A DNA stretch of 26,247 nucleotides from a virus (Duplodnaviria > Caudoviricetes): IMG/VR virus record IMGVR_UViG_3300034071_001139, positions 1-26,247 of that record. The stretch is one strand, 5' to 3'. Made by a program: the position numbers and the translations under genes. The notes below the pieces were generated by a model. The model was not told the DNA's origin and did no database searches. It was given only the letters and a program-made list of their open reading frames with translations. Shown piece after piece: positions 452-26,247 of the stretch. Each line of letters starts with the position of its first letter. The first letter of the stretch is position 1.

Positions 452-842
452 AGTTATGCCCCTTCATAATAACTGACTCTATCTTCAAATTAAGTTGTGA
501 TAATATGCTCAAAATATCAGATACGCTATATACTCCGCGTTTGCTATAAATTAGATTATTATAGTCATTGGTGCTAACCTTTCCACTAATAACATCTTTA
601 CATAGCGATGATAGCTCTAATCCACCCACGATAATATTGCAACCAAATCTCATTTTTTGTGAAATTTTCTGGAAAAACTCAGCTAATAAATTTGCTGGTA
701 TGCTGTCCAGAGCATCTATTGCAACAATGGACTGAGCCGCGTTATCTGGAATTATTCCAAGGTCTATCTTTCCATACAAGATTGGAACAATTTGATGATC
801 TTGTAATACCTTATCTATATTTTCAGTAATATGTATTTTCAT
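414..842 (-). CDS. Hypothetical protein resembling a degenerate class I SAM methyltransferase fold
   Basis: IPDNAAQSIVAIDALDSIP...FFQKISQKMRFGCNIIV parallels the C-terminal half of type-11 methyltransferases (xPDNSxDxIxxxxxLEH...RVLKPGGxLxI). The glycine-rich SAM motif I is absent. ATGA overlap with the upstream GT. Confidence 0.45.
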   Translation of the reverse strand: MKIHITENIDKVLQDHQIVPILYGKIDLGIIPDNAAQSIVAIDALDSIPANLLAEFFQKISQKMRFGCNIIVGGLELSSLCKDVISGKVSTNDYNNLIYSKRGVYSVSDILSILSQLNLKIESVIMKGHNYEIKATRPITTN

Positions 843-1837
843 TTGGTTGACGCCTCATATGTAAAATCAAATAGTTGGTTCCAGTTATTAATAAAATCTT
901 GCTCTGAGAATTTCTCTAAAATAGTTCTTCTAGCATTATCTCCAAGCCTTTTTCTCAAATCATCATTTTCTATAATTAGTTTTAAGTATGATTTTAGCTC
1001 TTCTTCGTCATTAGAAATATATCCATTTTCCCCGTTTGTGATAATTTCTGGAATCATGCACGTTGCTGTTGAAACAACGGCACAGCCACACGACATAGCC
1101 TCAAGCAAAGAGGTTGGTATTGGGCTTAATGTAGAACTATTGAAATATACGCCGCACTGATTATATTCTTGAACTAGTTCGTCGGTTGACGAAGCCGATG
1201 TAGACAAACCCTTTGTGTCTCCTACTAATCTGGTTGGTAAGCCATCAGTGACCCGTTTCCATCCAGAATAATTAAGACAGTAATCTCTATTTACAAAGTC
1301 ATTTGCTACAGTAAGAACATAGCTTGACTTTGGAGAATCTAGCGGTTTAAAAACATTTGTATCTATTCCATGATGAATTACCACTATGTTACGATCAACA
1401 TCCCAAGCTTTCATTGAATACTCAGAAATAAAAATGTTGATATCCCCCAACATGCGCTGCATAGAAGATATATTTTCTTTAGATAAAGTCTGAGGAGTTG
1501 GCAAAGTATGCTCTAGGCATAAAATTGGTAAATGTAAATGTTGATTAATTTGCTGTGCTACTTGAAACTGCCAGAATTTACTCTGCACCAATATCATGTC
1601 GTAATCAATATAGTCACACATATTTTCTTCTGGCAAGATGTAATAATTGGGCGGTGTCGGTAGTTGACTACTATTCCATTTCTTAAACTGTGGCATGTGA
1701 AAAGAATAAAAATTGTGGCCAGTTTTAGCTAACTGAGTTTCATATCGCTCATGCGTTGGAAAAGTGAGTATATTGTACTTTTCTGGCTTTGGCTTGTTGG
1801 CTATATTAATTAATCTTTTAACAGAGTTATTAAGCAT
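839..1837 (-). CDS. Glycosyltransferase, GT-B fold, family 4-like
   Basis: VIHHGIDTNVFKP and SPIPTSLLEAMSCGCAVVST...PEIITNGENGY motifs. Start placed at ATG 1837 because of an AAGGA RBS 8 nt upstream; 1846 is an alternative. Confidence 0.9.
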   Translation of the reverse strand: MLNNSVKRLINIANKPKPEKYNILTFPTHERYETQLAKTGHNFYSFHMPQFKKWNSSQLPTPPNYYILPEENMCDYIDYDMILVQSKFWQFQVAQQINQHLHLPILCLEHTLPTPQTLSKENISSMQRMLGDINIFISEYSMKAWDVDRNIVVIHHGIDTNVFKPLDSPKSSYVLTVANDFVNRDYCLNYSGWKRVTDGLPTRLVGDTKGLSTSASSTDELVQEYNQCGVYFNSSTLSPIPTSLLEAMSCGCAVVSTATCMIPEIITNGENGYISNDEEELKSYLKLIIENDDLRKRLGDNARRTILEKFSEQDFINNWNQLFDFTYEASTK

Positions 1838-2951
1838 ATATGGCATCCTTTATTAAATTACCAACGCTCTCATAACAAAACTTTTGTGCATATTTAATAC
1901 CAGCGGTTCTGTCTATAGAGTCTCTATTTTCATAGTAATACCTCATAGCTTTTTTCATTTCAGACTCGCTTGGGGTAAACCATTCTTCTCTGCCTGTAAA
2001 AATGTCTGAAAAAGCTGGATCAGAATGGTCGCATACAGAATATACTCCATTTATTAAGCTTCCAGTATTCTTGTCCTGTTCGTTGATAAATTCCTTTGGA
2101 CCGCCCTCATTACTGCATATGGGCGTTTTCCCAAAACACATAGCATCAAAAGCTGGTATTGACCACCCCTCTCCATGAGAAGCATTAATAAAGCAATCAC
2201 AGGAAGAATGTAATATATCTATTTCTTCGTTACTAAGTTCGCCGGGAACAATAATTTCCCTATTATACATAGAGACATCATCGTATATTCTTAGTTGTTT
2301 CTTTATCATGTTGCATAAATTAATAACGTGCTTATTTAGATCAACGTCATTTATGCCAAACTTCTTGACTTTTAATACTAGTGTCACAGGCTCAAAATTA
2401 TCAAATTCGCTATAAAAGCAACGAATGATTGATTCTATATTTTTTCTATCATTTAGATCACCAACATAATAGAACTTAAACTTATAGTTATCGTTCATAA
2501 AATTAATTTTACGATCAATAGTCTTATACTTTTCTAGGTTAAAAGCATATGGTATAACCTTAATCTTATTTTCATTTATCCCGTCGTTGGTCAATGCTAA
2601 TTTAAGACTATGATTTGGCACCCATACTTCGTCTACTAATTTAAGGTATATAAGCCAACTAGAATATCTTAATGTATTAGATTCGCCAACAAAGTATGCT
2701 ATATTTTTTTTAAATTTTTGTGTCCCAACTATGTGGTGCGGAAGGACATTCTGTATGCAACAGTCTATATTCTTCAAGTCTTTATTTTCTAACTCTAGAA
2801 TGGTTTTGTCAATTGGGCCACTGTGGTTAGTAAGTTTTATATTTCTACAAACTATGTCTAAACCGACACTATTAGCAGCTAAAATAGAGTTAGTGGTTGC
2901 TTGTGACCACCCACTACCTTCTTTATAATGTCCTATAAATAATGTTTTCAT
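1830..2951 (-). CDS. Glycosyltransferase, GT-B fold, family 4-like
   Basis: DEVWVPN, RKNI and SHGEGWSIPAFDAMCFGKTPI motifs. Start placed at ATG 2951 (ATGA overlap with upstream stop) rather than 2984. Confidence 0.9.
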   Translation of the reverse strand: MKTLFIGHYKEGSGWSQATTNSILAANSVGLDIVCRNIKLTNHSGPIDKTILELENKDLKNIDCCIQNVLPHHIVGTQKFKKNIAYFVGESNTLRYSSWLIYLKLVDEVWVPNHSLKLALTNDGINENKIKVIPYAFNLEKYKTIDRKINFMNDNYKFKFYYVGDLNDRKNIESIIRCFYSEFDNFEPVTLVLKVKKFGINDVDLNKHVINLCNMIKKQLRIYDDVSMYNREIIVPGELSNEEIDILHSSCDCFINASHGEGWSIPAFDAMCFGKTPICSNEGGPKEFINEQDKNTGSLINGVYSVCDHSDPAFSDIFTGREEWFTPSESEMKKAMRYYYENRDSIDRTAGIKYAQKFCYESVGNLIKDAIYA

Positions 2952-4603
2952 TTCTTCACAGCCTGCATTCTTTGTTGTTCCCAAAAATTTCTTCTATTAC
3001 ATAGGCCAGCCATATGATTATAGGCCATAGTAAAATCAAACGGTGTTCTACTTTGCTTACCATCGAACGCTGCGGAGCTTTCATTGAAATACATTCCTCC
3101 GGTGCTGGAAGTTGTGCATTTGTACATTAAGTCTCTTGTTAGCCTTGCTTCCATATAAGAGTTAATCTTATCCGGTTCGCACAATACGTCTGTTATTAAC
3201 CATCTAGCTAATATTTGATGAGATACATTCTCTGGTAAATCTGTCGGCTTTGGCTTTGGGTTAAATATTCTTGGTGGAGACTTCCATCCCAAATGATCTG
3301 GAACAATTTCTACACTATCGAAATAGTTCTCCCAAGCCTTACCGCTTTTATCCCACTGGTAATGCTCTAAAAAGGCTTGTCTAGTATCAAAGCCCATTTT
3401 ATTTCTTATGCTCTCTGGCTTATTAAAAAATTCTAGCAATTTTTGCGCTGCCAATTCATTGTCTGGAACTGCTCTGAAGCATCCAGTTTCTAATTCTTTA
3501 TATAAGGCTTTTGGTTTGATTGGTATGCCTTTTAGATTTCTTACAACGCTTTCCATTGCAGAGTAGTCTGTTGACATTACTGGAACACCACAAGCAGCCG
3601 CTTCTACTTGAGGTAATCCGAAGCCCTCGCAATTAGCATATTGTACATATATATCAAACAGGTTGATTATTTTAGATAAATCTTCGTAATCTACACCATG
3701 CTTAACATTAGAAAGAGTTGCACCATATTTTCCAGTATAAGGAGATTGAGCCACGGCACCCTTAAACAAAGACACAAATGGCTTATTTGTTTGTGGACAT
3801 ATGTATGTAAATAATAACTTGGATGATAGATCGTGCTGATGTAGTAATTCTGGAATGTCCCATCCCAAGTCTGGATAGCTAGTATGACAATAGAGCATAT
3901 ATTTAGAGCTATCTTCTACGGAGTTCAGAAACATTCTAAATGCTTCAAATAGGTCTGGATATAGCTTTCTTCTTTGGTTTCTCATTACCGTTCCAACTAT
4001 TTTCATGTCGGGATCAATACCAAAGCTAGAACGTAAAGCTTTTTTATCCATAGGTCTATATGCTGGATGTGCTGATGGTGGGGAAATTCCTAAATAATTA
4101 ATAGTTCCACCAGATTGTTCTTTTAATACTTCCCCAGCCCATTCTGAGTATGTCAAACAAGCATCTGCCGACTTATATGTTGCTATCCACTGTCTCGCTT
4201 GTGGCTGTGCGTCTACCGTTGGCATGATGCACCATTTATAGAATGGTCGAAATGGTGATCTTTCAGCAAAATCTAACATCCAAAAATCTCGTATGTCGCA
4301 AACAATATCTGGGAAAAAGTCTAGACAAACCGACTCAAACATCAGTTCTCCAAACTGCGCCGTTGGATTGTTAGCGTACTGAGCCTTTTCTTCTTCTGGA
4401 GCGTTATCTGAAGGAACTACGCCGTAAAACTTCCAAGGAATATTAGCGGCCCGTTTATCATTTCTTTCGCCATAAGCCGCCATTTCTGCAAGCTCATATT
4501 TACCAGTACTATGGAGATAATTTAGAATTTCTCTAGTATAGGTAGCGTAACCAGTATTTAGAAAAGTAGCCTCGCTACAGAATAAAATCCTTTTTTTTCT
4601 CAT
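2948..4603 (-). CDS. Glycosyltransferase, GT-B fold, family 4-like, with C-terminal extension
   Basis: N-terminal TGYATYT, VGTVMRNQRRKLYP and EGFGLPQVEAAACGVPV (EX7E) motifs. More than 100 extra residues follow the GT-B core. Confidence 0.92.
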   Translation of the reverse strand: MRKKRILFCSEATFLNTGYATYTREILNYLHSTGKYELAEMAAYGERNDKRAANIPWKFYGVVPSDNAPEEEKAQYANNPTAQFGELMFESVCLDFFPDIVCDIRDFWMLDFAERSPFRPFYKWCIMPTVDAQPQARQWIATYKSADACLTYSEWAGEVLKEQSGGTINYLGISPPSAHPAYRPMDKKALRSSFGIDPDMKIVGTVMRNQRRKLYPDLFEAFRMFLNSVEDSSKYMLYCHTSYPDLGWDIPELLHQHDLSSKLLFTYICPQTNKPFVSLFKGAVAQSPYTGKYGATLSNVKHGVDYEDLSKIINLFDIYVQYANCEGFGLPQVEAAACGVPVMSTDYSAMESVVRNLKGIPIKPKALYKELETGCFRAVPDNELAAQKLLEFFNKPESIRNKMGFDTRQAFLEHYQWDKSGKAWENYFDSVEIVPDHLGWKSPPRIFNPKPKPTDLPENVSHQILARWLITDVLCEPDKINSYMEARLTRDLMYKCTTSSTGGMYFNESSAAFDGKQSRTPFDFTMAYNHMAGLCNRRNFWEQQRMQAVKK

Positions 4604-4970: not shown

Positions 4971-6530
4971 CTAAATTTCATGTATCTGATTGATAACAAA
5001 AGAATTATCATGTTCGGCAACTGAGCCACAAAAGATTAAATTATTACCTTCATATAGAATATACTTATATTTCTCTTTTACTTTTGGAAAGGCTATGACG
5101 CTATCTAGTATGCAAGTGTCATCCTCAATTGTTAAAAATGACATAAGTTGCCCCTTAGATTCTCCCTTTGTAATCTTATAATCGGCCACTCTCTGTACGT
5201 TAGCGACAACGCATAAATCTTTGCCCCTTTTACCATTTATTATTTCTTTACAGGTGGTGTTGGCCGCAGAAGTATCCGCTGTTTCTACCTTTGTCATGCT
5301 CACCGGACAACCCAAAAACTTTACTTCTTGGTCTATTAACCAGCTTGGCTCGTCCTCTAGGTCATACGGTGGGTTAATTAAAAGCTGAATTTCATTCTCT
5401 ATTGCTTGTTTTCTATCAGCTTTACTTGTGCCGCCACCCTCTTTTTTCGTTGGGGCTAAGTCTGTTAAGCACTCTACAAATGTTTTCCACTTTTTGTCTG
5501 AGTACTTTTCTTTGATCCAAGTTTGTTCAGCTTTGGTTAAAACTCTATATATATCGTAATCATATAAAGCCTTATTTCTTGTGATCTTATCTTCAAAATC
5601 TCTAAAAAATCCAACTGATGCTAATGCCTTAAATGCTGTCGAGCTAATCTTTGGGCTTAGATATAGTAATATCTCTAGCCAGTTAAACTTTGTGATGGGC
5701 TTAGATAGTTCAGCTTCTGCTTCTTTAATGGATTCTATTAGCTTGTCGCCCGTCTTGCCCGTCAATGACTTTATATCTTTAATCCCAAAGTAGATTTTAC
5801 CCTTAGTAAAATTGAATTTACTAGCATAGTTTGCCAGTGAAGGGGTCTTGACTTGTATATCGAATAGTTTAGCTTCTGAGATTAATTCGTATGTTTCTCT
5901 CTGTGGGTCTTGTTTTTCTATAGCATGATACAAATATGATAAGAAAAACTCTTGAGTATGGTGGGCTTTATAATATGCGCTCCAATAAGAACATACTGCG
6001 TATGATACGCTATGAGATTTATTGAAGGCATAACGTGATGACTTTTCAATCCATCCGAATATTTGTTCTGCCTCTTCCTTTGTGACTATGTTGACCTTCT
6101 GTGCGCCCTCTATAAATGATTTTTTAACTTCATTCATAAGTGCAGCATTTTTCTTACCAATGGCTTTACGAAGAACGTCAGCCTCTTGAAGATTAAAACC
6201 CGCAATCTTTTGAGCAATACGCATAGATTGCTCTTGATATACAAGAATTCCATATGTAGGCTTTAAGATTTCTTCTAATGACTCATGTAAATAAGTTACT
6301 TCTTCACGACCATGTTTTCTGTCAACATAGTGCTGTGTCATGCTCTTACCATCTACGAAAGCCTTGAGCGTTCCCGGTCTAATGATAGCAATTAAAGCTG
6401 ACAATTCTTCTAGATTTGTTGGTGCTAATTTTTTAGACCAAGACTTACCAAGATTACTTTCTAACTGAAAGATACCCTTTGTTTTGCCTTCTGCAAATAA
6501 CTGCCAAGTTTTTTGATCGTTATATTCCAT
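4971..6530 (-). CDS. dnaE: DNA polymerase III alpha (DnaE-like), C-terminal half (fingers, HhH region, OB fold)
   Basis: TKGIFQLES, IRPG, DRKHGREEVTY, TYGILVYQEQ, ADVLRKAIGKK, YAFNKSHSVSY and the OB-fold MSFLTIEDDT motifs. No intein sequence at the N-terminus. Confidence 0.95.
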   Translation of the reverse strand: MEYNDQKTWQLFAEGKTKGIFQLESNLGKSWSKKLAPTNLEELSALIAIIRPGTLKAFVDGKSMTQHYVDRKHGREEVTYLHESLEEILKPTYGILVYQEQSMRIAQKIAGFNLQEADVLRKAIGKKNAALMNEVKKSFIEGAQKVNIVTKEEAEQIFGWIEKSSRYAFNKSHSVSYAVCSYWSAYYKAHHTQEFFLSYLYHAIEKQDPQRETYELISEAKLFDIQVKTPSLANYASKFNFTKGKIYFGIKDIKSLTGKTGDKLIESIKEAEAELSKPITKFNWLEILLYLSPKISSTAFKALASVGFFRDFEDKITRNKALYDYDIYRVLTKAEQTWIKEKYSDKKWKTFVECLTDLAPTKKEGGGTSKADRKQAIENEIQLLINPPYDLEDEPSWLIDQEVKFLGCPVSMTKVETADTSAANTTCKEIINGKRGKDLCVVANVQRVADYKITKGESKGQLMSFLTIEDDTCILDSVIAFPKVKEKYKYILYEGNNLIFCGSVAEHDNSFVINQIHEI

Positions 6531-6915
6531 ATTTAATGCTTGATACTATTTTATTAAGTGATGATATGAATAAATCTTTGCTGGCTGCCCCTCTACCAAG
6601 ATTTGCAAATCTAGAAGAAATTACAATATTTTCTTTTGTATAGCCAATAGTGTTGTCAATTCTGTCACAACTAATAGCTAAAGGATGCCAGCTAATCAAA
6701 TTGTCTGAAAGATTTAAGTCTATATTTAACCAATAACATTTTCCGTTTTGTTTATAATATTGATCTTTCAAATCTTTCCAGTCTATACTAACTTCTAATG
6801 CATGTTTTCTACCTCTGCTATATGATGTTGTACTTCTTATTATAGTTTCTCTAGAACTAACCTTTATTCTAGACATAAGAGATTTAAATACTTTGGTTTC
6901 AACATCATTTGACAT
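6520..6915 (-). CDS. HNH / His-Me finger-like endonuclease (putative free-standing homing endonuclease)
   Basis: KQNGKCYW...ISCDRIDNTIGYTKENIVISSRFAN fits the SxDRIDxxxGYxxxN...N phage nuclease family. Start placed at ATG 6915 (track starts at 6945). Zn cysteines are partly lost, so activity is uncertain. Confidence 0.7.
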   Translation of the reverse strand: MSNDVETKVFKSLMSRIKVSSRETIIRSTTSYSRGRKHALEVSIDWKDLKDQYYKQNGKCYWLNIDLNLSDNLISWHPLAISCDRIDNTIGYTKENIVISSRFANLGRGAASKDLFISSLNKIVSSIKYGI

Positions 6916-7585
6916 ATAAATTTCCATTGGCAAAAGCCTTGTCAAAGGTAATATTCTGATATACTGACCTGTGTGTTTTTAGTAATTTGATAAAGATATT
7001 AGCAGAATCTTTAACGTCTTGTAGAGCATCGTGTGCATTTTCTTTGCTTAGACCCATTCGTTCTCTTAGTGAGTCCATACTTATAGACTTGATACTTGGA
7101 TCACCCTCTGTCCACGCAAACACATTGTCCATAATATCTATTTTATATACTTTACTAAATAGTTTTTGCTGTTCTCGTTCACTGTCCCAAGGCCCAAATT
7201 CCTTACACAGTCTATTTATAATATGCATATCGAACCCAATAATATTAAAACCAACTGGGATGGGTGCAAAGAATGGTTCTCCCTTCCAATTATACTGATC
7301 TACAAACTTGGTGAATTTATTCCATACCGATTTTAATGACGGTGCCAGCTCTAGCTTTTCTCTTGTTTTACCGGTTATCCTCAAGGCTTCATCTTGAATT
7401 GGATCAAGGCCCGCCGCAATGGCCTTTTCGTCATCCAAGATTGGCTTAATTTCACTATTGAATGTTCCCTTAAGGGTTAAGCTTCGACCATCTAATGCTA
7501 TAGCGGCGATTTGCGTTGGCTGTGTCTTATGTGGATTACGTGATCCTGTCTCCCAATCAAAAATTATATAGTCCCTGTTAGCCAT
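6905..7585 (-). CDS. dnaQ: DEDDh 3'-5' exonuclease (DnaQ / epsilon-like proofreading subunit)
   Basis: ExoI DWETG, ExoII GFNIIGFD and ExoIII HDALQD motifs. TAAGGA RBS 8 nt upstream. Confidence 0.92.
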   Translation of the reverse strand: MANRDYIIFDWETGSRNPHKTQPTQIAAIALDGRSLTLKGTFNSEIKPILDDEKAIAAGLDPIQDEALRITGKTREKLELAPSLKSVWNKFTKFVDQYNWKGEPFFAPIPVGFNIIGFDMHIINRLCKEFGPWDSEREQQKLFSKVYKIDIMDNVFAWTEGDPSIKSISMDSLRERMGLSKENAHDALQDVKDSANIFIKLLKTHRSVYQNITFDKAFANGNLYVK

Positions 7586-9199
7586 TTATTGTTTCCTTAT
7601 CTCTTTAATAAACATTAGTTTGTCCAGCAGAGAAAGTCCCAACACATCAAACTTGACATGCCCAAGACTTTCTAAATCAGACATCTCTAGTCCAGCTATT
7701 TTCTCAGATGAATCACGTTGATCCACCATTGGGCATACGTCTGATAGTTTATATTTTGATATAACCACACCAGCCGCATGTTTTCCCTGTGTTTTAAAAG
7801 TACCCTCAATCTTTATAGCTTGATCAAAGTACTCTGCATAGTCACCATCTAATTTCCCATCCTCGTTGATATAACAAAAGTCTCTAAGCTCATTAGCATT
7901 ATTAATTAATGCCCAACGAATAATAGAACGATCTTCATCATCCATATCTGCTAATTGGTCAGATATTTCTGCTTCATTGGGAATACTCTTTGTTATAGCG
8001 TTCATCTCTGCAAAAGAACAAGCTTCGTTTACGCGAAGAACTTCTTTAATTGCACTACGCCCCTGTAGTCTTCCGAACGTAATCATTTGGCTAACGTGGT
8101 TGTGTCCATACTTATTCTTTAAGTACAGTAGTACTTCATCACGACGCTTTGCTGGAACGTCCATGTCAATATCTGGCAATGAGATATGATCAGCACTATT
8201 TCGTCCAGCATTGTAGAATCTTGAAAACAGTAGATCAAACTCTAGAGGATCAATCTTTGTAATACCAATTAAATATGAGATTAAACATCCAGCAGCAGAA
8301 CCTCTACCGGGACCAGATAGCCACCCTTGATCATTTACATATTGTATAATGTCCTGTACTATCAAAAAATATCCGAATAGATTAGCCCCCTTAATAACAT
8401 CAAATTCTTCCTTAAATCTTTCTAGATATTTCTCTTTGTCTTCTGGTTTAGACACTTTGTTGTTTTCTATTAGTAGATTCTTCCAGCCAACGCGACATAG
8501 TTCTTTTAGATAATCTTCTTCTGTTTCGCCATTTGGGCAGGGAAAAGCTGGAAGCATTGGCTTACTTAGTATATCATATTCTTCACAACTATTAATAATA
8601 GTCTCTACATATTCTTTATTTTTAGATGTTGTGTTTTTTAGAATTGAGTTTACTTGGTCTTTTCCTATAACAAAAAGATCATCATGCGTAAATTGATGTG
8701 CCAATTCCTTTGATATTTCTCCGCTATGCACCAACTTGTTTACCTTGGGCAAAGTGGTCTTTAGTTCAGAGCATAGCAATATTCTATGTAATTTAGCATC
8801 TTCGCTATTGACATAGTAACTTACTGGCATAATATTTGATAGGTCGTTATTGTGTGGAACATTGATAACATTTCCACCACTCAAAACTTTAGACCAAATA
8901 CTTGGAGACACATTGCCATCAGTGTCTAGCGACGATACTAGCCTAATGAGATCGTGCCAACCGTCTTTGTTTTTTGCAAACAGTGTAGAATTATCAAATG
9001 AGCAACCAATGATTGGTTTAATCCCAACCTTTTTACAAGCCTTGTAGAACTTTACGGCACCAGATATGGTTTTATAATCAGCAATTCCACAGGCCGGATA
9101 GCCCTCTTCCTTGCACTTTTGTGCTAGCTCATCCGGCTTTGAAAAACCTTTTAGCAAACTATAGTGGGTGTAATTCCTTAATGGACACCAATTCAACAT
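7586..9199 (-). CDS. dnaE: DNA polymerase III alpha (DnaE-like), N-terminal half (degenerate PHP, palm, thumb)
   Basis: YSLLKG, GIKPIIG, GPGRGSAAG, catalytic PDIDMD, GKHAAGVVI and KFDVLGL motifs. The ORF ends 15 residues after KFDVLGL with no intein. Confidence 0.95.
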   Translation of the reverse strand: MLNWCPLRNYTHYSLLKGFSKPDELAQKCKEEGYPACGIADYKTISGAVKFYKACKKVGIKPIIGCSFDNSTLFAKNKDGWHDLIRLVSSLDTDGNVSPSIWSKVLSGGNVINVPHNNDLSNIMPVSYYVNSEDAKLHRILLCSELKTTLPKVNKLVHSGEISKELAHQFTHDDLFVIGKDQVNSILKNTTSKNKEYVETIINSCEEYDILSKPMLPAFPCPNGETEEDYLKELCRVGWKNLLIENNKVSKPEDKEKYLERFKEEFDVIKGANLFGYFLIVQDIIQYVNDQGWLSGPGRGSAAGCLISYLIGITKIDPLEFDLLFSRFYNAGRNSADHISLPDIDMDVPAKRRDEVLLYLKNKYGHNHVSQMITFGRLQGRSAIKEVLRVNEACSFAEMNAITKSIPNEAEISDQLADMDDEDRSIIRWALINNANELRDFCYINEDGKLDGDYAEYFDQAIKIEGTFKTQGKHAAGVVISKYKLSDVCPMVDQRDSSEKIAGLEMSDLESLGHVKFDVLGLSLLDKLMFIKEIRKQ

Positions 9200-14712: not shown

Positions 14713-16153
14713 TTATCGCTATCTTTATTAGAGATTCTGAGTCGATTAGTCCCGTATCACCAACGGGCTGATTCTTAAATTCATTACGTGTTTTTAATTC
14801 TTTTAGTTTAGCGTGTGCGCCCTGCATAATCATATTAATATAATCTCCATCATCTAGACCACCACCATGTCGAGCAACGATGGGAACTAATTTTCTATTA
14901 CCAGCATTTGGACCATCTTCTGCTAGTTCTTCTGGAGATTTGATTTTAAAAATTGAGAACGATGTGCATAGCCAAATTAGTCTATCTGAACCGCTTACGG
15001 CGTCAGTGCTTTCCTTTGTGATACCGTCACGGTTTAACTGCACAAAAGACAAGCACGGTATATCTAACTTAACACAAAGGTTGTGTAAAGAAGTAATCTG
15101 AAAACCTAAAGCTTGATACTCTTGAATATTATTTGTGATTGAACTAGATGACATTAACTTAAGATAGTCATATATAATTACGCAGTCATTTGTCTTGCCA
15201 GTATCATCTACTTTTACCTCTTGCACAACCCATCTTTTGATTAGATTTAAAATTTGCTCAAATGGTTTTCCAGCAACGCTTACGTAGGAATATGGGATAT
15301 CTTGTAGTTTTGCAACCGCTTCTTGTACTTTATATAATTTATCCTCATCGTCTACGAATTTACCAGTAGCAATTTCATTGATTGGAACACCGCTCATGTT
15401 TGCTAGTAATCTATTCAAATGGTCTTCTTTGCTCATTTCTGTATCAAGCATCAGAACGGGAATACCGCCCGTTGCAACGTTGAGAGCAACATTGTCTGCA
15501 AATACTGATTTACCAACTTTTGGTCTAGCAGAAACAAGATCAACACACTTTCTTCTTAGGCCACCGCCAATAGCAGTATCATATCTATTGAATCCTGTTG
15601 GTATACCGATAATATCGCACTTATTATCTTGTAGGAATTGAACGTATTCATCAATGCCTTTTCCTATCTTTTCTGGAGTGTCGCCACCGTCATCTTCTCT
15701 GAGGAATTCTGTAACGGGATTTTCTAGAATCTGAATAATTTCATTAATAGACTCAGACCCGGTAACATCATCAATATCTTTATGGATTTTGTGTGTTAAC
15801 TTTTTAATAGACCTAGCAAATTCAAACTTCTTTATTTGAATAGCAAAACTAAATATGTTTTCTTTACTTACTGGAAAATCAAATAGAGACTTGATATATT
15901 TAAGCTCTTGTGGTGTGTTGATGCTCTCCGATAATCCAAGCTGATTGGCGGCAGATAATAACGATGGAATATCTACCTTCTGATCATTTTGTACTACCTT
16001 TTCTACACACTTGTATATAATCTGATTATTAGCATGACCAAAAGATTCATGCGTAATTAAATCTGATATTGCCACATAGCCATCCATACCATGCTGCATT
16101 ATTCCAGCAAGTACTGCACGTTCAGAGCCTATGTCTGTTAGTTTAGTTTCCAT
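14678..16153 (-). CDS. dnaB: Replicative DNA helicase, DnaB-like
   Basis: ERAVLAG, GIPTGF, Walker A ARPKVGKS, TEMS, DYL and VQLNR motifs. Confidence 0.95.
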   Translation of the reverse strand: METKLTDIGSERAVLAGIMQHGMDGYVAISDLITHESFGHANNQIIYKCVEKVVQNDQKVDIPSLLSAANQLGLSESINTPQELKYIKSLFDFPVSKENIFSFAIQIKKFEFARSIKKLTHKIHKDIDDVTGSESINEIIQILENPVTEFLREDDGGDTPEKIGKGIDEYVQFLQDNKCDIIGIPTGFNRYDTAIGGGLRRKCVDLVSARPKVGKSVFADNVALNVATGGIPVLMLDTEMSKEDHLNRLLANMSGVPINEIATGKFVDDEDKLYKVQEAVAKLQDIPYSYVSVAGKPFEQILNLIKRWVVQEVKVDDTGKTNDCVIIYDYLKLMSSSSITNNIQEYQALGFQITSLHNLCVKLDIPCLSFVQLNRDGITKESTDAVSGSDRLIWLCTSFSIFKIKSPEELAEDGPNAGNRKLVPIVARHGGGLDDGDYINMIMQGAHAKLKELKTRNEFKNQPVGDTGLIDSESLIKIAINGTTDDQENAE

Positions 16154-16569
16154 TATTTACCTGTGCATCGACTGCAACGATGGTATTCTCCATAAACATA
16201 TTTTGGGTCTGTCTTAAAAGTTCTACCACAAACACTACATTCTACATCTATTTTTTTATGTGATGGTCTGTTTCGTGGAGTACGTTCACCCTGCGGTGTT
16301 TCAATATCTTTAAACTCTCCAGTATCAACCCAATCGTTCTTTCTAGCTTTCACCGGTTCTCTTCTCCTACTATTAGAAGTATCTGTCTTTCTTACAACGA
16401 AGTTTTCATCCACGGTGACAGGTGGTGGCGTGGATGGCTTTTGTTTCACTTTTGGTGTTTGAGGTTCTTTTTCTTGCTTACTAGCGGTTGACTGTGATAG
16501 TAAAGACTCTACGAGCTTTTTCTTTTGTTCGTCTGATAGTGATGATAAAAATTCATCGAAGTTGTTCAT
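16153..16569 (-). CDS. Hypothetical protein with C-terminal zinc ribbon
   Basis: CSVC...CSRC at the C-terminus, low-complexity middle, overlaps both neighbours. Confidence 0.75.
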   Translation of the reverse strand: MNNFDEFLSSLSDEQKKKLVESLLSQSTASKQEKEPQTPKVKQKPSTPPPVTVDENFVVRKTDTSNSRRREPVKARKNDWVDTGEFKDIETPQGERTPRNRPSHKKIDVECSVCGRTFKTDPKYVYGEYHRCSRCTGK

Positions 16570-17048
16570 TGTCTCTTTCCTTTCTCTAGCAATATATCGG
16601 CTTTTCTTTTTAGTTCGAACACTTTGCCTTCTAATGCTTGAAGTCTACCCTCTGCCACCTGTCGCATATTTTCTAAAGAGGCGGCGTAAGAATTGTTTTG
16701 GGCTAAAATATACTTTTTAGATTCATGCTTTGTGTATTGACCAAATTGTTCTGGATTTCTTACGATCATCTTTTCCATCTCATCATGACACCAAGACAAT
16801 GCGATCTTATTTTTATTGATTTCGTCCTGTATATAAGTAGCATATCCATACAGCAAATAAGCCGCATCGAACGTTTCTTGTTGTGTTAGTTTCTTTAGGC
16901 TATCTAGTGGCAAGTCTGCTACTAACAAAAACTCTTCCTTAAATCCAACAAACTTTGTGTTGGTTATGTTAACATAGTCATTAATACTATTTATATGTTC
17001 AGATATTTTCTCAGACGCCTTTAATACGTTGTCGCCACTCATCATCAC
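16566..17048 (-). CDS. Helical / coiled-coil hypothetical protein (possibly a UvsY-like recombination mediator)
   Basis: All-helical pattern, size, and location near recA. The function is a contextual guess. Confidence 0.55.
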   Translation of the reverse strand: MMMSGDNVLKASEKISEHINSINDYVNITNTKFVGFKEEFLLVADLPLDSLKKLTQQETFDAAYLLYGYATYIQDEINKNKIALSWCHDEMEKMIVRNPEQFGQYTKHESKKYILAQNNSYAASLENMRQVAEGRLQALEGKVFELKRKADILLEKGKRQ

Positions 17049-17433
17049 TTTCTGAATATTTTAGGGTTATTAGCTCAATGTCGTTTAGTTCACACCAACA
17101 TATCTTATCTTCGTCGCGGACTTTTGACTTGATAAAATCTGCTTTACTCTTGTGGAAAAACTCACAGTATTCGTAGTGCTGTTGCCCATGAACCTCAATT
17201 CCCTTTTTAATCGAAGGAATGTAAAAGTCAAGGTACAAAACAGATTTTCTATGAGGCAGTGTGCTTCCCGGTAGTTTTACTTCTTCTAAAATTCTATAAC
17301 TATTGTATATCTCTTTTAATAAATTTCTAGCACGAAGATGGTATTTAGAACGCTTACGTGTGTCATCGTAAAATACATCATACTTAGTAAGATTCCACAC
17401 ATATTCTCTACCGTTTATTCCTACTACCTTCAA
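17011..17433 (-). CDS. Vsr / DUF559-like PD-(D/E)XK endonuclease
   Basis: LYLDFYIP...IEVHGQQHY...RDEDKICWCELNDIELI pattern. Confidence 0.8.
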   Translation of the reverse strand: MKVVGINGREYVWNLTKYDVFYDDTRKRSKYHLRARNLLKEIYNSYRILEEVKLPGSTLPHRKSVLYLDFYIPSIKKGIEVHGQQHYEYCEFFHKSKADFIKSKVRDEDKICWCELNDIELITLKYSESDDEWRQRIKGV

Positions 17434-18530
17434 TTTAGCTCCTTAATCTTATCATAGATAAAATCTGCAATCTTAGGATTTTCATTCAAAAATTCAGCAA
17501 CAGCATTTACGCCTTGAAACTTCAGAGCTTTTTCTATTTCTTCTGGAGTAGACGCATTCTTAGATGATAAGTATTCTTTGATTGTGGCATGGTCTGGGCT
17601 TTCAGAAGCACACGATATGGTATACCAAGCACCAGCAGCCTTAATTAGCCTAAACTCGCAGGCGATTTGAATAATTTCCTGTACTTCATCCACACCAACG
17701 CCATATCTAATCCACCCTTCCGCTGTGCTATTGGGCTTGCCGCCAGCACAGGAAGTCTTTACGTTCCAGTTAGCAATTTGCCCAACGTGTGTGCCAGTAT
17801 CTTTGGGAACTTGCCACTTTCCTCTGTGGGTAATTACCATATTTGTGCCAGCTTGATATTGTAACATATTTCCACAATCTGCCATCTTTTGTGGTGCGTA
17901 TGGAGAACCGCCAGTGTTAGCAATATTGTGCGTGATACATATTAATATAGTCTTGTTCTTCATAAGAGTTCCACTAATTCTCTTAAAAAACATGGATAGT
18001 AGTCTTGGCAGTGCGTTTCTTACGCCTGTTCTGACTTCGCCCTCAAGCTCTACTGCTGGAACCATATTAGATAATGAGTCTGCTATGATTAAACAGCCGG
18101 GATCATTATTAATATAGTACTCAATAATATTTAAAAAGTCCTCTGCGGATAATACTCTTTCGTCTGTGGATTCGACAATTAAAATATCATCTGATCGTAA
18201 GTCTTTAATCCCATCAAAATTATGCTTAGATAATCTACCTTCAGTGTTTAGATAGATAACTCTTTTACCCTTTTTTTGACACTTGGCAGCAAAATGAAGC
18301 GCAGTAGTGGTTTTACCGCTCTTGGGGTCGCCCGTCATGACAACTACCGACCCTTCTCTAATGCCGCCACCAAGAGCAATGTCTAGTGCTGGCGATAAAC
18401 CAACAACCTGTAGATTGTTGATATTTGCTAATACTTCCGTGCCACTTCTAACAACATCGCCATACTTGCTGACAATCGTGTTGCTAACAGCATCCTCTGT
18501 AAACTTACTTGGCTTCTTTACTTTGCTCAT
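17430..18530 (-). CDS. recA: RecA-like recombinase
   Basis: LDIALGGG, Walker A GDPKSGKTT, NTEG, Walker B IIADS, VPAVELEGE and AGAWY motifs. Confidence 0.95.
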   Translation of the reverse strand: MSKVKKPSKFTEDAVSNTIVSKYGDVVRSGTEVLANINNLQVVGLSPALDIALGGGIREGSVVVMTGDPKSGKTTTALHFAAKCQKKGKRVIYLNTEGRLSKHNFDGIKDLRSDDILIVESTDERVLSAEDFLNIIEYYINNDPGCLIIADSLSNMVPAVELEGEVRTGVRNALPRLLSMFFKRISGTLMKNKTILICITHNIANTGGSPYAPQKMADCGNMLQYQAGTNMVITHRGKWQVPKDTGTHVGQIANWNVKTSCAGGKPNSTAEGWIRYGVGVDEVQEIIQIACEFRLIKAAGAWYTISCASESPDHATIKEYLSSKNASTPEEIEKALKFQGVNAVAEFLNENPKIADFIYDKIKELN

Positions 18531-19048
18531 AGGTTCCTCAAATTGTTCATGGTTGTCCTTTTTGTATTATAGCTTTGAGTAGCTCTAGTTTCAAGTCTGG
18601 GTAATTCTTTTTCTTCAACTTCTAGATTTACTTCAATTTTTTTATTAGCTTCTTCAATTTGTTTTTGATGCTTGGCTATTACCTTTTCAGCCTCTGGATT
18701 GACTTTGTATCCTCTGCCATTCTGTATGCCAATGACTAATAGCCTATCAAAATCCTTGGACTTAATAGCACTTAGTATAGCTTCTTCGCTATATTTCTTT
18801 TTCAACTGTATAGCAGCACCATATTGTTTTTTCCATATCCAGTGTAAAGGATCGCCCTTAGTCCAAAATTTATAAGAGGGCTTCCCTAAGTTCAACCTTT
18901 CTGAACGTCGCAAAATAAGATATTCAGCAACATATGCTTCAAATGTACAATATTCACCAGTATGAATATGTTTATATTTATGAGTTTCAGACCACTGCTT
19001 CTGGTAGTCTTTATTAAACAGTTCTGGTTTTGGTTTCTTGGGTTTCAT
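18527..19048 (-). CDS. Hypothetical basic protein
   Basis: 173-aa ORF overlapping both neighbours in the operon; no motif recognised. Confidence 0.75.
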   Translation of the reverse strand: MKPKKPKPELFNKDYQKQWSETHKYKHIHTGEYCTFEAYVAEYLILRRSERLNLGKPSYKFWTKGDPLHWIWKKQYGAAIQLKKKYSEEAILSAIKSKDFDRLLVIGIQNGRGYKVNPEAEKVIAKHQKQIEEANKKIEVNLEVEEKELPRLETRATQSYNTKRTTMNNLRNL

Positions 19049-22374: not shown

Positions 22375-22813
22375 AGCGATTTTCTCCTCGTTGCGAGGAA
22401 CCTAACGTCGCATGGACCTCCAATTTTACGCGAGGAACCTCTTGGAATATAATCTGAGCGATTCTATCCCCGATATGTACTACAACATTCTCATCAGAAG
22501 TGTTATAAAGACATACCATTATCTCTCCTCTATATCCACAATCCACCACGCCCGCCAAAACATCTATGCCTTGTTTAACTGATAAGCCCGATCTGGGCCA
22601 TATTAAACCAGCCATGTGTTCTGGCATCTCTAGTGCTATCCCAGTGCTGACAGTCTTGCGTTGTTTTGATGGAATGACGGTTTCTACAGTTGAATATAAA
22701 TCACAACCGGCGTCATTCATATTAGCCTTAGTGGGAATCTTGGCTAGCTCATTTAATAATGAGACTTTAATTACATCATAATCAATATCCCAGCGATCTT
22801 CATAAATTGTCAT
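22355..22813 (-). CDS. dut: Trimeric dUTPase
   Basis: AGCDL, PRSGL, GVVDCGYRGE, GDRIAQ and RGENRFGSSG (motifs I-V). Confidence 0.95.
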   Translation of the reverse strand: MTIYEDRWDIDYDVIKVSLLNELAKIPTKANMNDAGCDLYSTVETVIPSKQRKTVSTGIALEMPEHMAGLIWPRSGLSVKQGIDVLAGVVDCGYRGEIMVCLYNTSDENVVVHIGDRIAQIIFQEVPRVKLEVHATLGSSQRGENRFGSSGL

Positions 22814-23889
22814 ATTTCCATTCCTCCAAGGTCCATGTCCTCTAAATCGTTTTTGCTAGCACCAATTTTATATGAAGTAATTTCATGTTCTTGTGGTGCT
22901 ACCTGTACGGACTCACTATTCATCCACGGGTCAGTCCATCCCGATATTGGATTTTTACATCCCTTGTCATATGGTAAACCAATGTTTTTCCTTCTGGTCA
23001 TACATAGCCAATCTACATAATCTGCCATTACCTTGTCATTTAAACCAATTATAGAGCCATCTTTAAAAAGATATTCTGACCAAGCTTTTTCTTCTGCTGC
23101 CGCTGATTCAAACATGCGGACAGCATCTTCTTCACATTCTTCTGCTATCTTTACGAACCCCTCGTCAGGATTGTTTCGAAGAATTTTAATAATCTCTTGA
23201 GTATTATATAAGTGCAGAGCTTCATCACGCTTAATAAGTTTAATGATATCGGCATTGCCAATCATTTTCTTATTTTCAGCGAACGCAAAAGCACAGATAA
23301 ATGATACATAAAAACGCACCGCTTCTAGAATGTTAACGCTAATAAGAGTTAGGTAAATCTGCTTTTTAATATCTTTAAGCTTGCCGGAATGTCCTATCTC
23401 TCGTAAAGCGTTATACTCTTTGATCGCTACGTTGGCTCGTTTTAAAATTTCTTTATCTGTTAGGCAACTATCTAATATTTCACTAGGATTACTATAGACA
23501 TTTTTAATAATATATGTGTAGCTATAGCTGTGAATTTGTTCGAAGAATTGCCATACGTTCATGCAGGCTTCTAATTCTGGATTAGAAACGTATTCGGTTA
23601 GTGTTGGAACGCCACGACAAATGACGCTATCCATCATTGTTTGATATTTTAAATTTGAAGTAAAGATGAAACGCTCATTCTCTGACATAATATCGTCATT
23701 CTTGAAATCATTTCTATCTTTTTTTAATTCAATTTCTTCTGGACGCCAAAAGAATTCAAGTTGCTTCTTATAAAGATCAAAAAATACTGGGTACTTAAAT
23801 TTATCATATCTTTGTAGAGATAAATCTTCGCCCAAAAAAAGTGGCTGGGCTAAATAGTCAACGTTATTTTTATTTAATATTGTTTTCAT
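22810..23889 (-). CDS. nrdB: Ribonucleotide reductase class Ia beta subunit
   Basis: FFWRPEE, DSV, EQIHSYSY (radical Tyr), EAVRFY, RDEALH and EITSY motifs. Start placed at ATG 23889 after a GAGG RBS. Confidence 0.95.
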   Translation of the reverse strand: MKTILNKNNVDYLAQPLFLGEDLSLQRYDKFKYPVFFDLYKKQLEFFWRPEEIELKKDRNDFKNDDIMSENERFIFTSNLKYQTMMDSVICRGVPTLTEYVSNPELEACMNVWQFFEQIHSYSYTYIIKNVYSNPSEILDSCLTDKEILKRANVAIKEYNALREIGHSGKLKDIKKQIYLTLISVNILEAVRFYVSFICAFAFAENKKMIGNADIIKLIKRDEALHLYNTQEIIKILRNNPDEGFVKIAEECEEDAVRMFESAAAEEKAWSEYLFKDGSIIGLNDKVMADYVDWLCMTRRKNIGLPYDKGCKNPISGWTDPWMNSESVQVAPQEHEITSYKIGASKNDLEDMDLGGMEI

Positions 23890-23903: not shown

Positions 23904-24953
23904 TTATATTGCACACGATCCAGATTCGCAATCAGATGACTTTTCTGTTTGACCATCACCGTCAGGAGTATTGCAATAATAAAAGTTCTTTACGCCATAT
24001 TTATACCCATAAATCTGATCTTTTATCAAAATACTCAAGGGTATATTGCCTTCTGGATAGTGGGAATAATTATAATATAGATTCACGCTAATACTCATAT
24101 CTACGAATTTTTGTAGTACCGCACAAATATTTAGGATAGCCTTATTATCGGGCATTTCCCACGCTAGAGTATAGTAATTCTTGCGTGACATATAATTTGG
24201 CACTAGCTGCTTTAGAACGCCATTCTTAGCCTTCTTGTAAGACATTAGGTTCCTGACAGGCTCAATACCATTTGTGCTGTTCTGGATCACGCTAGACGAT
24301 TCACAGGGCATAATAGCAGTCAACGTAGAATGTCTTAGCCCGTGTGTTTTTATTCTTTCTCGCAACCCTTCCCAATCCATAGTATACTCTGGCTTAACCA
24401 GTTCGTCAACTGTTTTTTTATACCAATCTATTGGCAGTAATCCCTGCCCATATTTAGTCTCTTGGAATTTTGCACATGGCCCCTTGATATGTGCCAATTT
24501 GCATGACTCATTCAGTAGATGCCACTGAATCTTTTCCATCATTTCGTGGACAAGCTTGGGCGTTTCTGGATCGTCATATTTCAATTTATTCTTAGCTAAA
24601 TATGCTGCAAAATTAGTGATCCCTATTCCAAGCGATCTTCTGTTCTTGGTAAAGTTCTCGCCAGCCGCCACCGGATAGTCTTGATAATCTATAATAGACT
24701 CCAGAGTTCTAACGGCGACAGAACACGCTTTCTCAATATCTTTATCATCTTCAATTTCTAGCAAGTTTAGTGCTGACAAAATACAAATACCAATCTCGCC
24801 CTCTTTATCATCAATAGAAGAAATCGGAGTAGTTGGGTGAATAATTTCTTGGCAATTATGTACTAAAATACCATTAGCATAGAAGTTATTATTATTTGCT
24901 ACTGTGATATCAAAAACGTCGGATCGTTCATTTATTTTTTGGATTTTTAGCAT
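23904..24953 (-). CDS. nrdA: Ribonucleotide reductase alpha subunit, C-terminal part, fused to split-intein IntC
   Basis: After 33 aa of IntC: CQEI (radical Cys and Glu), GICIL, RRSLGIG, GLRHSTLTAIMP, FYY and terminal CESGSCAI. Own AAGGA RBS. Confidence 0.95.
   Translation of the reverse strand: MLKIQKINERSDVFDITVANNNNFYANGILVHNCQEIIHPTTPISSIDDKEGEIGICILSALNLLEIEDDKDIEKACSVAVRTLESIIDYQDYPVAAGENFTKNRRSLGIGITNFAAYLAKNKLKYDDPETPKLVHEMMEKIQWHLLNESCKLAHIKGPCAKFQETKYGQGLLPIDWYKKTVDELVKPEYTMDWEGLRERIKTHGLRHSTLTAIMPCESSSVIQNSTNGIEPVRNLMSYKKAKNGVLKQLVPNYMSRKNYYTLAWEMPDNKAILNICAVLQKFVDMSISVNLYYNYSHYPEGNIPLSILIKDQIYGYKYGVKNFYYCNTPDGDGQTEKSSDCESGSCAI
24855..24953 (-). other. Split intein C-fragment (IntC, 33 aa)
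   Basis: MLKIQKINERSDVFDITVANNNNFYANGILVHN|C: block F (VFDITV...NFYANG) and block G (VHN followed by Cys+1). Confidence 0.95.
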
Positions 24954-25611
24954 GTTTGTCCTTTAATGTTTTACTTATTTTTTCGTTATATTCTTTTTTA
25001 TATCGCTCATTGTATGAAAGCTTAAAAGAATCTTCAGTGTGTGGTATATTTAGGTCATTAAGCCTTGATTTCAATGCTCTGATGAAATTTTTATAACCGC
25101 CACCAAATCTAAATTTTGTGTAACTAACTGGTAGCTTGTTGTTTTTGCAATATTTGAACCAAGCCACCCGTATTAACTTATTATTATTATCCTTGTAAAA
25201 CTCTACTGCTTTTTCTAAGATTTCTTCATTTGTTATTGACCTAGAGTTTGGATTATCAAGACCCTGTGTTCTTTTTTGTATTGATTTTTTCCATGCCTCT
25301 AGCTTGTGATCTGGAACAGACCATCCTCCAACTCCACCATATGTTTCATTATACCCATTTTTAATTGTGTCTAATTCAGTAATATAATACTGCTCTTTTA
25401 GAAGTGCCTCGTCCTTGTTTTCTGATGAATATAAGATTTCAATAGTAATATTTTCAATGCCATAAAGCCTAATGGCTCGATATAAATGAGAATCTATTCC
25501 GTAACTAGCATTGGTGTAATGCTTGTGAATTCTATTTATTACTCCTTGACCAGTAAATCCTACATATTTTTTATTTGTGTCTTTGAATGTTAAACAGTAT
25601 ATTTCGTACAT
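24928..25611 (-). CDS. Free-standing GIY-YIG homing endonuclease
   Basis: EIY...YVG, conserved R, LYRAIRLYG, catalytic E (KEQYYI) and GYN motifs, plus a C-terminal DNA-binding-like region (TNEEIL...RFG). AGGAG RBS. Confidence 0.92.
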   Translation of the reverse strand: MYEIYCLTFKDTNKKYVGFTGQGVINRIHKHYTNASYGIDSHLYRAIRLYGIENITIEILYSSENKDEALLKEQYYITELDTIKNGYNETYGGVGGWSVPDHKLEAWKKSIQKRTQGLDNPNSRSITNEEILEKAVEFYKDNNNKLIRVAWFKYCKNNKLPVSYTKFRFGGGYKNFIRALKSRLNDLNIPHTEDSFKLSYNERYKKEYNEKISKTLKDKHAKNPKNK

Positions 25612-25612
25612 T

Positions 25613-25650
25613 TCTTAGCTCCTAAGATGAATGATCTCTATCTTAGTATA
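25613..25650 (-). promoter_or_regulatory. -10-like TATACT plus alternative hairpins overlapping the endonuclease RBS
   Basis: Minus strand reads TATA-CTAAGAT-agagatcattc-ATCTTAG-gag-CTAAGA-a-ATG. The central arm is complementary to both flanking arms. No recognisable -35. Confidence 0.55.
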
Positions 25651-25665
25651 CACAGAAATCTTACA

Positions 25666-26247
25666 TCATGGTATAATATCTAATTCATCATTTTCTTCTA
25701 GATTTTTTGCTTCTACGTATCCGCGATTTTTTGTAAATATCTTATGCTCTGGCGTACACCTAATAGTGAATCCAGAATCCATGTCTTCTATCTGGATTAA
25801 TTCTGCGTCTTCGCCTGTTAATGCGCTATCTGATACCTTTTCATATGAAATAACAGAAGAGTCTATATTTTTAGATAGAACCATTATTTCCTTTCCGGCT
25901 TTGAATATATCGTCTAGTTCTGACAATGGTATTAATACCTTTTTGCCATCAACAATTGCGTCAACCTTAGTGTCTCCGGTGAGACATAAATTACTCATAT
26001 AAACTGGAACAAGCCAAGAGCCATGCTCGTTAGCGTTGTCAATATTCATAACATATATTCTACCAGTTTCTAGTCTTTCTTTGGCAAAAATTTCTGCCAA
26101 CTTTCTAGCACTAATCTTTTTCTTCATCTTGACATGTCTACTATTTTCATACTTTTCGTACAGCCTTTTAAAGTCATCGTTGTTGTTCATGGAGCTATAC
26201 AATCCACCGGTTTCTTCTGGACTAAACAAAGTAATATCTTCGTTCTT
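25666..26247 (-). CDS. nrdA: Ribonucleotide reductase alpha subunit, N-terminal part (5' partial), fused to split-intein IntN
   Basis: Frame is open to the window edge (KNEDITLFSPEE...). ERLETGRIY and VYMSNL are followed by intein sequence and a TGA stop. Confidence 0.95.
   Translation of the reverse strand, partial: KNEDITLFSPEETGGLYSSMNNNDDFKRLYEKYENSRHVKMKKKISARKLAEIFAKERLETGRIYVMNIDNANEHGSWLVPVYMSNLCLTGDTKVDAIVDGKKVLIPLSELDDIFKAGKEIMVLSKNIDSSVISYEKVSDSALTGEDAELIQIEDMDSGFTIRCTPEHKIFTKNRGYVEAKNLEENDELDIIP
25669..25986 (-). other. Split intein N-fragment (IntN, 106 aa)
   Basis: Block A CLTGDTKV, block B IRCTPEHKIFT, then RGYVEAKNLEENDEL and stop. Confidence 0.95.

Follow-up and report, generated by a model that had tools for sequence, protein, structure and literature searches.

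A fractured nrdA gene bearing a split intein plus a free-standing GIY-YIG endonuclease in an uncultured freshwater phage

The fractured nrdA locus

The DNA considered here, which we call the window, is the whole 26,247-nt stretch of IMG/VR virus record IMGVR_UViG_3300034071_001139, from an uncultured phage. A class Ia nrdA gene in the window is interrupted by a 1132-nt cassette that carries the two halves of a split intein and, between them, a separate gene for a GIY-YIG endonuclease. We put at about 0.88 the probability that the NrdA pieces are rejoined by protein trans-splicing and that the endonuclease homes the cassette into empty alleles.

The fractured gene consists of three open reading frames (ORFs), all on the minus strand: nrdA-N with the N-terminal intein half (IntN), the GIY-YIG gene, and the C-terminal intein half (IntC) with nrdA-C. 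The first ORF (26247..25666, open at the window edge) starts within the NrdA N-extein, whose last 87 codons (25987..26247, identified by profile and sequence comparison) end in VYMSNL, the final two residues being the equivalents of N437 and L438; some 340 codons at the 5' side of nrdA-N, the C225-equivalent codon among them, lie beyond the window edge. The frame then runs into IntN (25666..25986; CLTGD...TPEH...DIIP), which has 106 residues (25986-25669), 12 of them Lys or Arg versus 23 Asp or Glu, and a TGA stop (25668-25666). After the stop comes a 54-nt spacer that, with the start of the GIY-YIG gene, is predicted by RNA folding to form a hairpin (25609..25665). The endonuclease gene (227 codons, 24928..25611) overlaps the third ORF (24953..23904) by 26 nt, and within its 3' end the sequence has a Shine-Dalgarno-like AAAGGA (24959..24964) 5 nt ahead of the ATG of that third ORF. 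There, IntC (33 residues, 24855..24953; M...VFDITV...VHN; 3 Lys or Arg and 3 Asp or Glu) is followed by the NrdA C-extein (23904..24854; CQEIIHP...), 316 residues counted from Cys+1. The gap from the IntN stop to IntC is 712 nt. Directly downstream of nrdA-C, on the same strand, lies nrdB (22810..23889), for the class Ia small subunit.

The original prediction placed a naturally split intein, with an independent GIY-YIG gene between its halves, at the radical cysteine of NrdA, and the ORFs, the profile matches and the alignment to the E. coli protein all bear this out. IntN passes the Intein_Nterm profile TIGR01445 with 31.9 bits (cut-off 24.5) and IntC the intein_Cterm profile TIGR01443 with 39.4 bits (cut-off 15.6), and the endonuclease matches PF01541. 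The splicing residues listed in the prediction can be read in the sequence as those of a class 1 intein: C1, T78-x-x-H81 (T78-P-E-H81), block-F D15, H32-N33 and Cys+1; IntN also has a cysteine, C77, beside block B. The alignment of the C-extein to E. coli R1 takes in the whole of residues 439-761 (E 9.5e-94) with Cys+1 on C439, so the radical cysteine doubles as the +1 nucleophile position, as had been proposed, and the insertion lies directly N-terminal to it, between the L438 and C439 codons. One chain thus holds the N437 equivalent, and the other chain has those of C439, E441, C462, Y730-Y731 and the C-terminal cysteine pair. The split point falls between intein motifs N4 and C2, where just a short linker is present in L084, an allele that is contiguous. 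Among solved structures IntN alone matches only one, NrdJ-1 (PDB 8UBS, 9OMB; E 3e-14, about 34 of 87 residues identical as counted on the alignment).

Both nrdA halves are without a stop or frameshift, and every E. coli catalytic position that falls within the window is kept. The N-extein is 93-94% identical to intein-free alleles. The ratio of nonsynonymous to synonymous change (dN/dS) is about 0.03 for the C-extein, against the related locus L016, and 0.04-0.12 for the intein halves; both are under purifying selection.

This class of locus has been known since 2009, at the same site, and the window locus is another allele of it. Dassa et al. (2009, PMC2677866) described the fractured-gene layout and seven NrdA loci, NrdA-1 to NrdA-7, and by their account the nrdA site is the commonest insertion point of RNR (ribonucleotide reductase) inteins; RNR itself is a common intein host (Dwivedi 2013; Novikova 2016). 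The prediction had already granted that the class is not new and had noted a resemblance to NrdA-2, which holds: by hand count on Fig. S1 of Dassa et al., about 51 of 106 IntN residues (about 48%) and 21 of 34 IntC residues (about 62%) are identical.

Empty alleles, cassette movement and the endonuclease

Is the split a property of the phage or of the assembly? Eight of 24 listed sequencing runs were compared with the window (X1-X8, with X5 and X6 from one study). A contig from X6 covers 24565-26103 without a gap, contigs from X5 and X3 bridge each cassette end, and L001 and L016, two related loci, have the same stop, spacer and frames as the window. An X1 contig is identical over 24798-25981; X1 may be the window's source sample. 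The frames recur, free of gaps, in contigs from other studies, so the split is not an assembly error, and in the X6, X5 and X3 contigs the halves and the endonuclease remain in separate frames, as the prediction had them.

The same samples also hold the gene without the cassette. In four of the eight runs (X1, X2, X4 and X8) a contig joins 24855 to 25994, skipping 1138 nt, with 6 other letters between; these six still encode SNLC, through synonymous codons. The cassette is thus 1132 nt long (24855..25986), and exactly this is missing from the empty allele. Run X1 holds the empty and filled alleles together (contig depths 8.2 and 5.9). Of 110 viral loci with a relationship to the N half, the best 80 comprise 69 that read SNL-CQE uninterrupted and 11 that carry the intein, seven of these 11 being near-copies of one allele. 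The top matches include Synechococcus phage ACG-2014d, with nrdA uninterrupted in the single record inspected.

How does the history of the cassette compare with that of the gene around it? Between the window and L001 the synonymous p-distance is 0.15 for IntN, 0.20 for the endonuclease and 0.25 for IntC, versus 0.73 for the N-extein, 0.82 for the C-extein and 0.75 for nrdB; pooled, the divergence is 0.19 in the cassette and 0.80 in the exteins (Fisher p 3e-42), and identity to L001 extends just some 15 nt into each extein. In the comparison with the X6 contig, the differences listed number 37 for 290 nt of C-extein and 3 for the adjoining 387 nt of cassette. Similarity to L001 and X6 is lost close to the cassette ends, over a distance of about 15 nt to a few tens of nt. 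A tree of C-exteins with 53 rows, 6 from carriers and 47 from empty alleles, calls for 5 changes to place the carriers, and strongly supported branches force at least 3 of these; the number was as low in 95 of 500 shuffles, so the carriers show no clustering beyond that of shuffled data. For L002, and likewise for L004, the sister allele is an empty one (100% support). As judged from these comparisons, the cassette has moved laterally, and recently, between phages. Such mobility is not entirely without precedent, since Gosselin (2025, bioRxiv) presents evidence from sequences that inteins continue to pass between phages when their endonucleases are out of frame; the mobility signal together with the matched empty allele is what this locus adds to the known class. 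A filled and empty pair from the same samples defines the likely target of the endonuclease and makes the homing of a split-intein cassette testable; our literature search found no experimental test of such homing.

The 227-residue endonuclease matches the GIY-YIG family PF01541 above cut-off (E 7.5e-6) and has a dN/dS of about 0.07. Residues Y5, Y16, R27, H31, E73 and N88 are invariant across four homologues, at identities down to 31%, and correspond to Y6, Y17, R27, H31, E74 and N87 of I-BmoI, the set given as critical in PMC2853131. A structure model built from a 4-row alignment (mean predicted local confidence, pLDDT, 67.5) has as its best structural match the catalytic domain of I-TevI (1LN0; Z 9.2, root-mean-square deviation 2.3, 88 residues aligned). 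The likeness to I-TevI and I-BmoI thus lies in the catalytic fold and residues, and ends with the C-terminal part, where the model is helical over residues 121-198 (pLDDT about 50-89) and finds middling matches to TetR-type helix-turn-helix domains (Z 5-6). I-TevI and I-BmoI are themselves intron-encoded. This helical domain, approximately residues 121-198, probably binds DNA, to judge from the model. For the C-terminal part Pfam has no family and an ESM Atlas search gave only unnamed clusters below 0.8; a PDB sequence search with the endonuclease gave no match.

A single-sequence scan found only two loci with this endonuclease, and from an alignment-based scan the best 80 of 277 loci were examined. 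Among these 80, 57 match at least 170 endonuclease residues, and all but one of the 57 lie inside an nrdA split intein (52 with both halves, 4 cut by a contig end), in carriers whose N-exteins share only 42-80% identity; the 23 shorter matches include just one in nrdA. By these sequence measures the endonuclease looks functional and tied to the nrdA site. HNH-type endonucleases that lie between the intein halves in L209, L214 and L261 match residues 112-219 of the window's GIY-YIG protein, which suggests that one targeting domain has been swapped between nuclease types at the same site.

The hairpin ahead of the endonuclease gene has a predicted energy of -14.1 kcal/mol, and 3 of the 5 bases in the AGGAG ribosome-binding site (25623-25619) are paired in it, as is part of the ATG; its z score is -2.1 on 60 nt (12 of 500 shuffles as low) and -1.3 on a 91-nt window (18 of 200). 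Folding of eight other spacers gave six with z below -2.3 and two, L123 and L139, without a hairpin. The predicted structure probably damps the endonuclease's own translation. The T4-type late promoter TATAAATA is absent from the window spacer and present in those of L074 and Yersinia phage TG1; Dassa et al. (PMC2677866) report it in 10 of 15 hairpins, an optional companion of fractured genes. At 25647-25653, on the minus strand, the spacer reads GTGTATA...ATAG, which recurs in the L004 and L120 spacers and is a candidate promoter for this group of phages. As a phage promoter GTGTATW is not established, with 4 matches in the window versus 8.1 expected and 16 versus 7 in the control for five related records. 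A sigma-70 scan gave 6 sites versus 7.1 expected, and no terminator was found.

Splicing, homing and the alternatives

What becomes of an NrdA made in two pieces? Relatives of the intein help here. From 136 loci, after 8 with a missing part were dropped, 77 distinct intein pairs were obtained, a few of them in class II or other RNR hosts. Of these pairs 63 are split with a gap of at least 400 nt, 10 are split with a shorter gap that leaves no room for an endonuclease, and 4 are contiguous; the intervening genes, judged by eye, include GIY-YIG, HNH and Vsr-like types. The terminal Asn and Cys+1 are conserved in 77 of 77 pairs, the block-F Asp in 76 and the penultimate His in 74, and C77 is nearly invariant. 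The contiguous, fractured and endonuclease-lost stages of the 2009 model are therefore all seen at one insertion site. L002 is, as its sequence reads, an intermediate of endonuclease loss: most of the endonuclease gene is deleted (L002:460-620), and the last 50 or so codons (about 150 nt) remain, giving IntN a new stop in another frame and retaining the IntC start, a pattern expected if the 3' end of the endonuclease gene carries the IntC start signal. L083 resembles L002, with a Vsr-like remnant. In the allele of L003-L009 IntC ends in Ser-Asn instead of His-Asn, and in the carrier L146:3259-5652 the C-extein is interrupted again, by about 1.5 kb near residue 185.

By class 1 intein chemistry, IntN and IntC would associate, C1 would undergo an N-S shift assisted by T78 and H81, and Cys+1, the later radical cysteine, would accept the N-extein by transthioesterification; N33 would then cyclise, and an S-N shift would restore SNL-CQEI with L438 joined to C439. 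The AAAGGA in the 3' end of the endonuclease gene would provide the start signal for IntC-nrdA-C. By analogy with other GIY-YIG enzymes, the helical C-domain of the endonuclease would bind the empty site during co-infection and the N-domain would nick both strands nearby, so that repair in mixed infections would copy the cassette into the cut empty allele. Each of three complete relatives carries a single nrdA and lacks nrdD, which makes it probable that the RNR encoded by the phage depends on splicing. A requirement for trans-splicing is plausible at the level of the phage enzyme, as read from these genomes; host RNR could still supply deoxynucleoside triphosphates (dNTPs).

One might ask whether splicing is needed at all. 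Split-intein halves bind tightly with or without splicing, and they might serve as docking tails that hold the NrdA pieces together. Such an arrangement has a precedent in phage Aeh1, where Crona et al. (PMC3045599) demonstrated a working, unspliced two-chain NrdA, NrdA-a/NrdA-b. The Aeh1 nrdA-a/mobE/nrdA-b locus is like the window in that a phage nrdA is broken by a free-standing endonuclease gene that overlaps the downstream half; as described there, it differs in having no intein, an HNH enzyme, another break point and non-covalent assembly through tails. The tails in the window are not of the Aeh1 type, as both are intein halves above curated cut-offs. Furthermore, the Aeh1 cut separates two barrel strands and lies after C431 and before the C462 equivalent, whereas the cut here is inside the N437-L438-C439 loop, and an unspliced insert of 139 residues would be expected to occupy the catalytic centre. 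With the splicing residues conserved in 74-77 of 77 pairs, and with NrdA-2 known to splice, docking without splicing is very unlikely. A decaying pseudogene in a phage that relies on host RNR seems still less probable: host cells can complement broken phage genes, as argued by Dassa et al. (PMC2677866), and degenerate phage nrdA genes are reported (Dwivedi 2013), but the intact halves, the low C-extein dN/dS, the retained catalytic positions and an intact adjacent nrdB all speak against decay. Judged by frames, start signals and gap length, removal of the gap at the RNA level, ribosome bypass (named as an alternative by Dassa et al.) or misassembly of a contiguous intein is hardly credible, even though 4 of the 77 pairs at this site are contiguous mini-inteins: the frames recur in gap-free contigs from other studies and, together with the stop, in the loci L001 and L016, IntC is preceded by a Shine-Dalgarno-like site of its own and begins with an ATG, and the gap is as long as 712 nt.

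Does the endonuclease in fact home the cassette? Several observations weigh against the reading we prefer. Between the window and L016 the synonymous distance is 0.20 in the C-extein, no more than the 0.20-0.26 of the cassette, and 0.64 in nrdB; this shared tract runs past the intein and through the entire C-extein, so that a long co-conversion tract, ordinary recombination or shared descent fits as well. The patchy tree of carriers could stem from repeated precise loss. L183, a near-full-length endonuclease homologue (E 3e-13; the exception among the 57 long matches), lies outside nrdA, the hairpin is weak in the window and absent from the L123 and L139 spacers, and the conservation of C1 and TxxH among the 77 pairs is partly built in by the way the loci were selected. 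If splicing is real and the endonuclease does not home, the cassette would be spread by ordinary recombination, or the enzyme would cut elsewhere in the manner of the T4 seg endonucleases; the L016 tract and the persistence of ten distinct pairs with gaps under 400 nt are in keeping with this. The endonuclease has however kept its catalytic residues and a dN/dS of about 0.07, 56 of its 57 long homologues among the best 80 of 277 loci are at one site in carriers of widely varying N-exteins, and similarity to L001 and X6 ends close to the cassette boundaries. A cassette spread without homing is therefore rather unlikely, and trans-splicing with homing remains our preferred account.

A bolder proposal sees in the locus a composite selfish element that is still spreading through one lake phage population and has turned into a redox gate on RNR, with dNTP synthesis under conditional trans-splicing. 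Splicing requires C1, C77 and Cys+1 in the reduced state, so that under oxidative or metal stress RNR would be kept back as a pair of inactive precursors and set free later. As a whole this proposal is improbable. Its homing half is quite probable by itself; for the regulatory gate there is nothing here in support, and, as the empty alleles found alongside show, the phage manages without it.

Known systems and other features of the genome

The window agrees with the NrdA-1 to NrdA-7 loci, as Dassa et al. (PMC2677866) present them, in the enzyme, the insertion point and the order on one strand of host-N with IntN, spacer, endonuclease and IntC with host-C. GIY-YIG is one of the two endonuclease types they give for fractured genes, the other being Vsr-like. 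The endonuclease-IntC overlap of 26 nt is within their range of 6-69, IntC at 33 residues is at the short end of their 33-54, the spacer of 54 nt falls just outside their 27-51 nt, and a hairpin precedes the endonuclease in their loci as it is predicted to do in the window; unlike many of theirs, the window hairpin is without TATAAATA. The window differs further in being another allele, in an uncultured freshwater phage group that has a split DnaE and is not cyanophage-like, with an empty allele in the same samples. NrdJ-1 is more distant, with a class II host, an insertion one residue further downstream and Ser+1.

NrdA-2 belongs to the same allelic family as the window pair, and its trans-splicing has been measured, whereas the window pair is known from sequence. 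In Pinto et al. (2020, PMC7090010) NrdA-2 trans-splices and has a place in the orthogonal matrix; its C half, C2, gives about 16,000-19,000 units when paired with the cognate N half and less than 350 with others in the rows examined, and NrdA-2 stands outside the five inteins called exceptionally fast. The suggestion that the window pair may be a new fast or orthogonal ligation reagent finds no support in this: NrdA-2, the nearest allele that has been characterised, is outside the fastest group, cross-reaction with it is possible at about 48% and 62% identity, and there are at least 77 distinct relatives. These 77 pairs are a pool for intein engineers to screen, in which nothing singles out the window pair.

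Two cultured phages with the layout were identified. Yersinia phage vB_YenM_TG1 (KP202158) has it at the same site, the gene between the halves being of the HNH type. In its locus (L115:1708-5355) the split intein and HNH gene are accompanied by a TATAAATA hairpin, and the feature table does not label the intein. Klebsiella phage KP13-7 (OP617745) has a GIY-YIG gene that by eye shares the motifs of the window subfamily; it differs in that the split is one residue downstream (SNLC|C) and a second split intein is present. The KP13-7 locus (L116:1029-6303) has nrdA in four pieces, with an HNH-type insert early, the GIY-YIG split intein and, towards the C-terminal part, the second split intein, which has an HNH-type gene; the pieces are mostly annotated as hypothetical, and the inteins are unlabelled in the feature table.

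The neighbours of nrdA in the window include, besides nrdB, genes for a dUTPase, PhoH, a recombinase, a helicase, a primase and DnaE, which mark a phage replication module. The runs containing the sequence are mostly from lake and freshwater metagenomes, with no RNA data set among those listed, and the three complete relatives are 161-173 kb in length. At 4971-9199, on the minus strand, the DnaE polymerase is encoded in two genes (537 and 519 residues) with a DnaQ-like exonuclease gene between; no intein motifs were seen in either piece. The split of DnaE is found throughout the group, and L279 has ORFs of 541, 226 and 514 residues in a row. A search with the C-terminal DnaE piece gave no close cultured phage relative, the best being at 29%. 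Between the exonuclease gene and dnaE-C lies a 141-codon endonuclease gene (6520-6945, minus strand; PHROG 3322, endonuclease VII-like), an optional insert, since it is unmatched in all five relatives searched and cleanly absent from G003, G004 and G005. Two further ORFs, between the recombinase and helicase genes (16153-17433, minus strand), have HNH or homing-endonuclease PHROG matches, and three glycosyltransferase genes are located at 839-4603.

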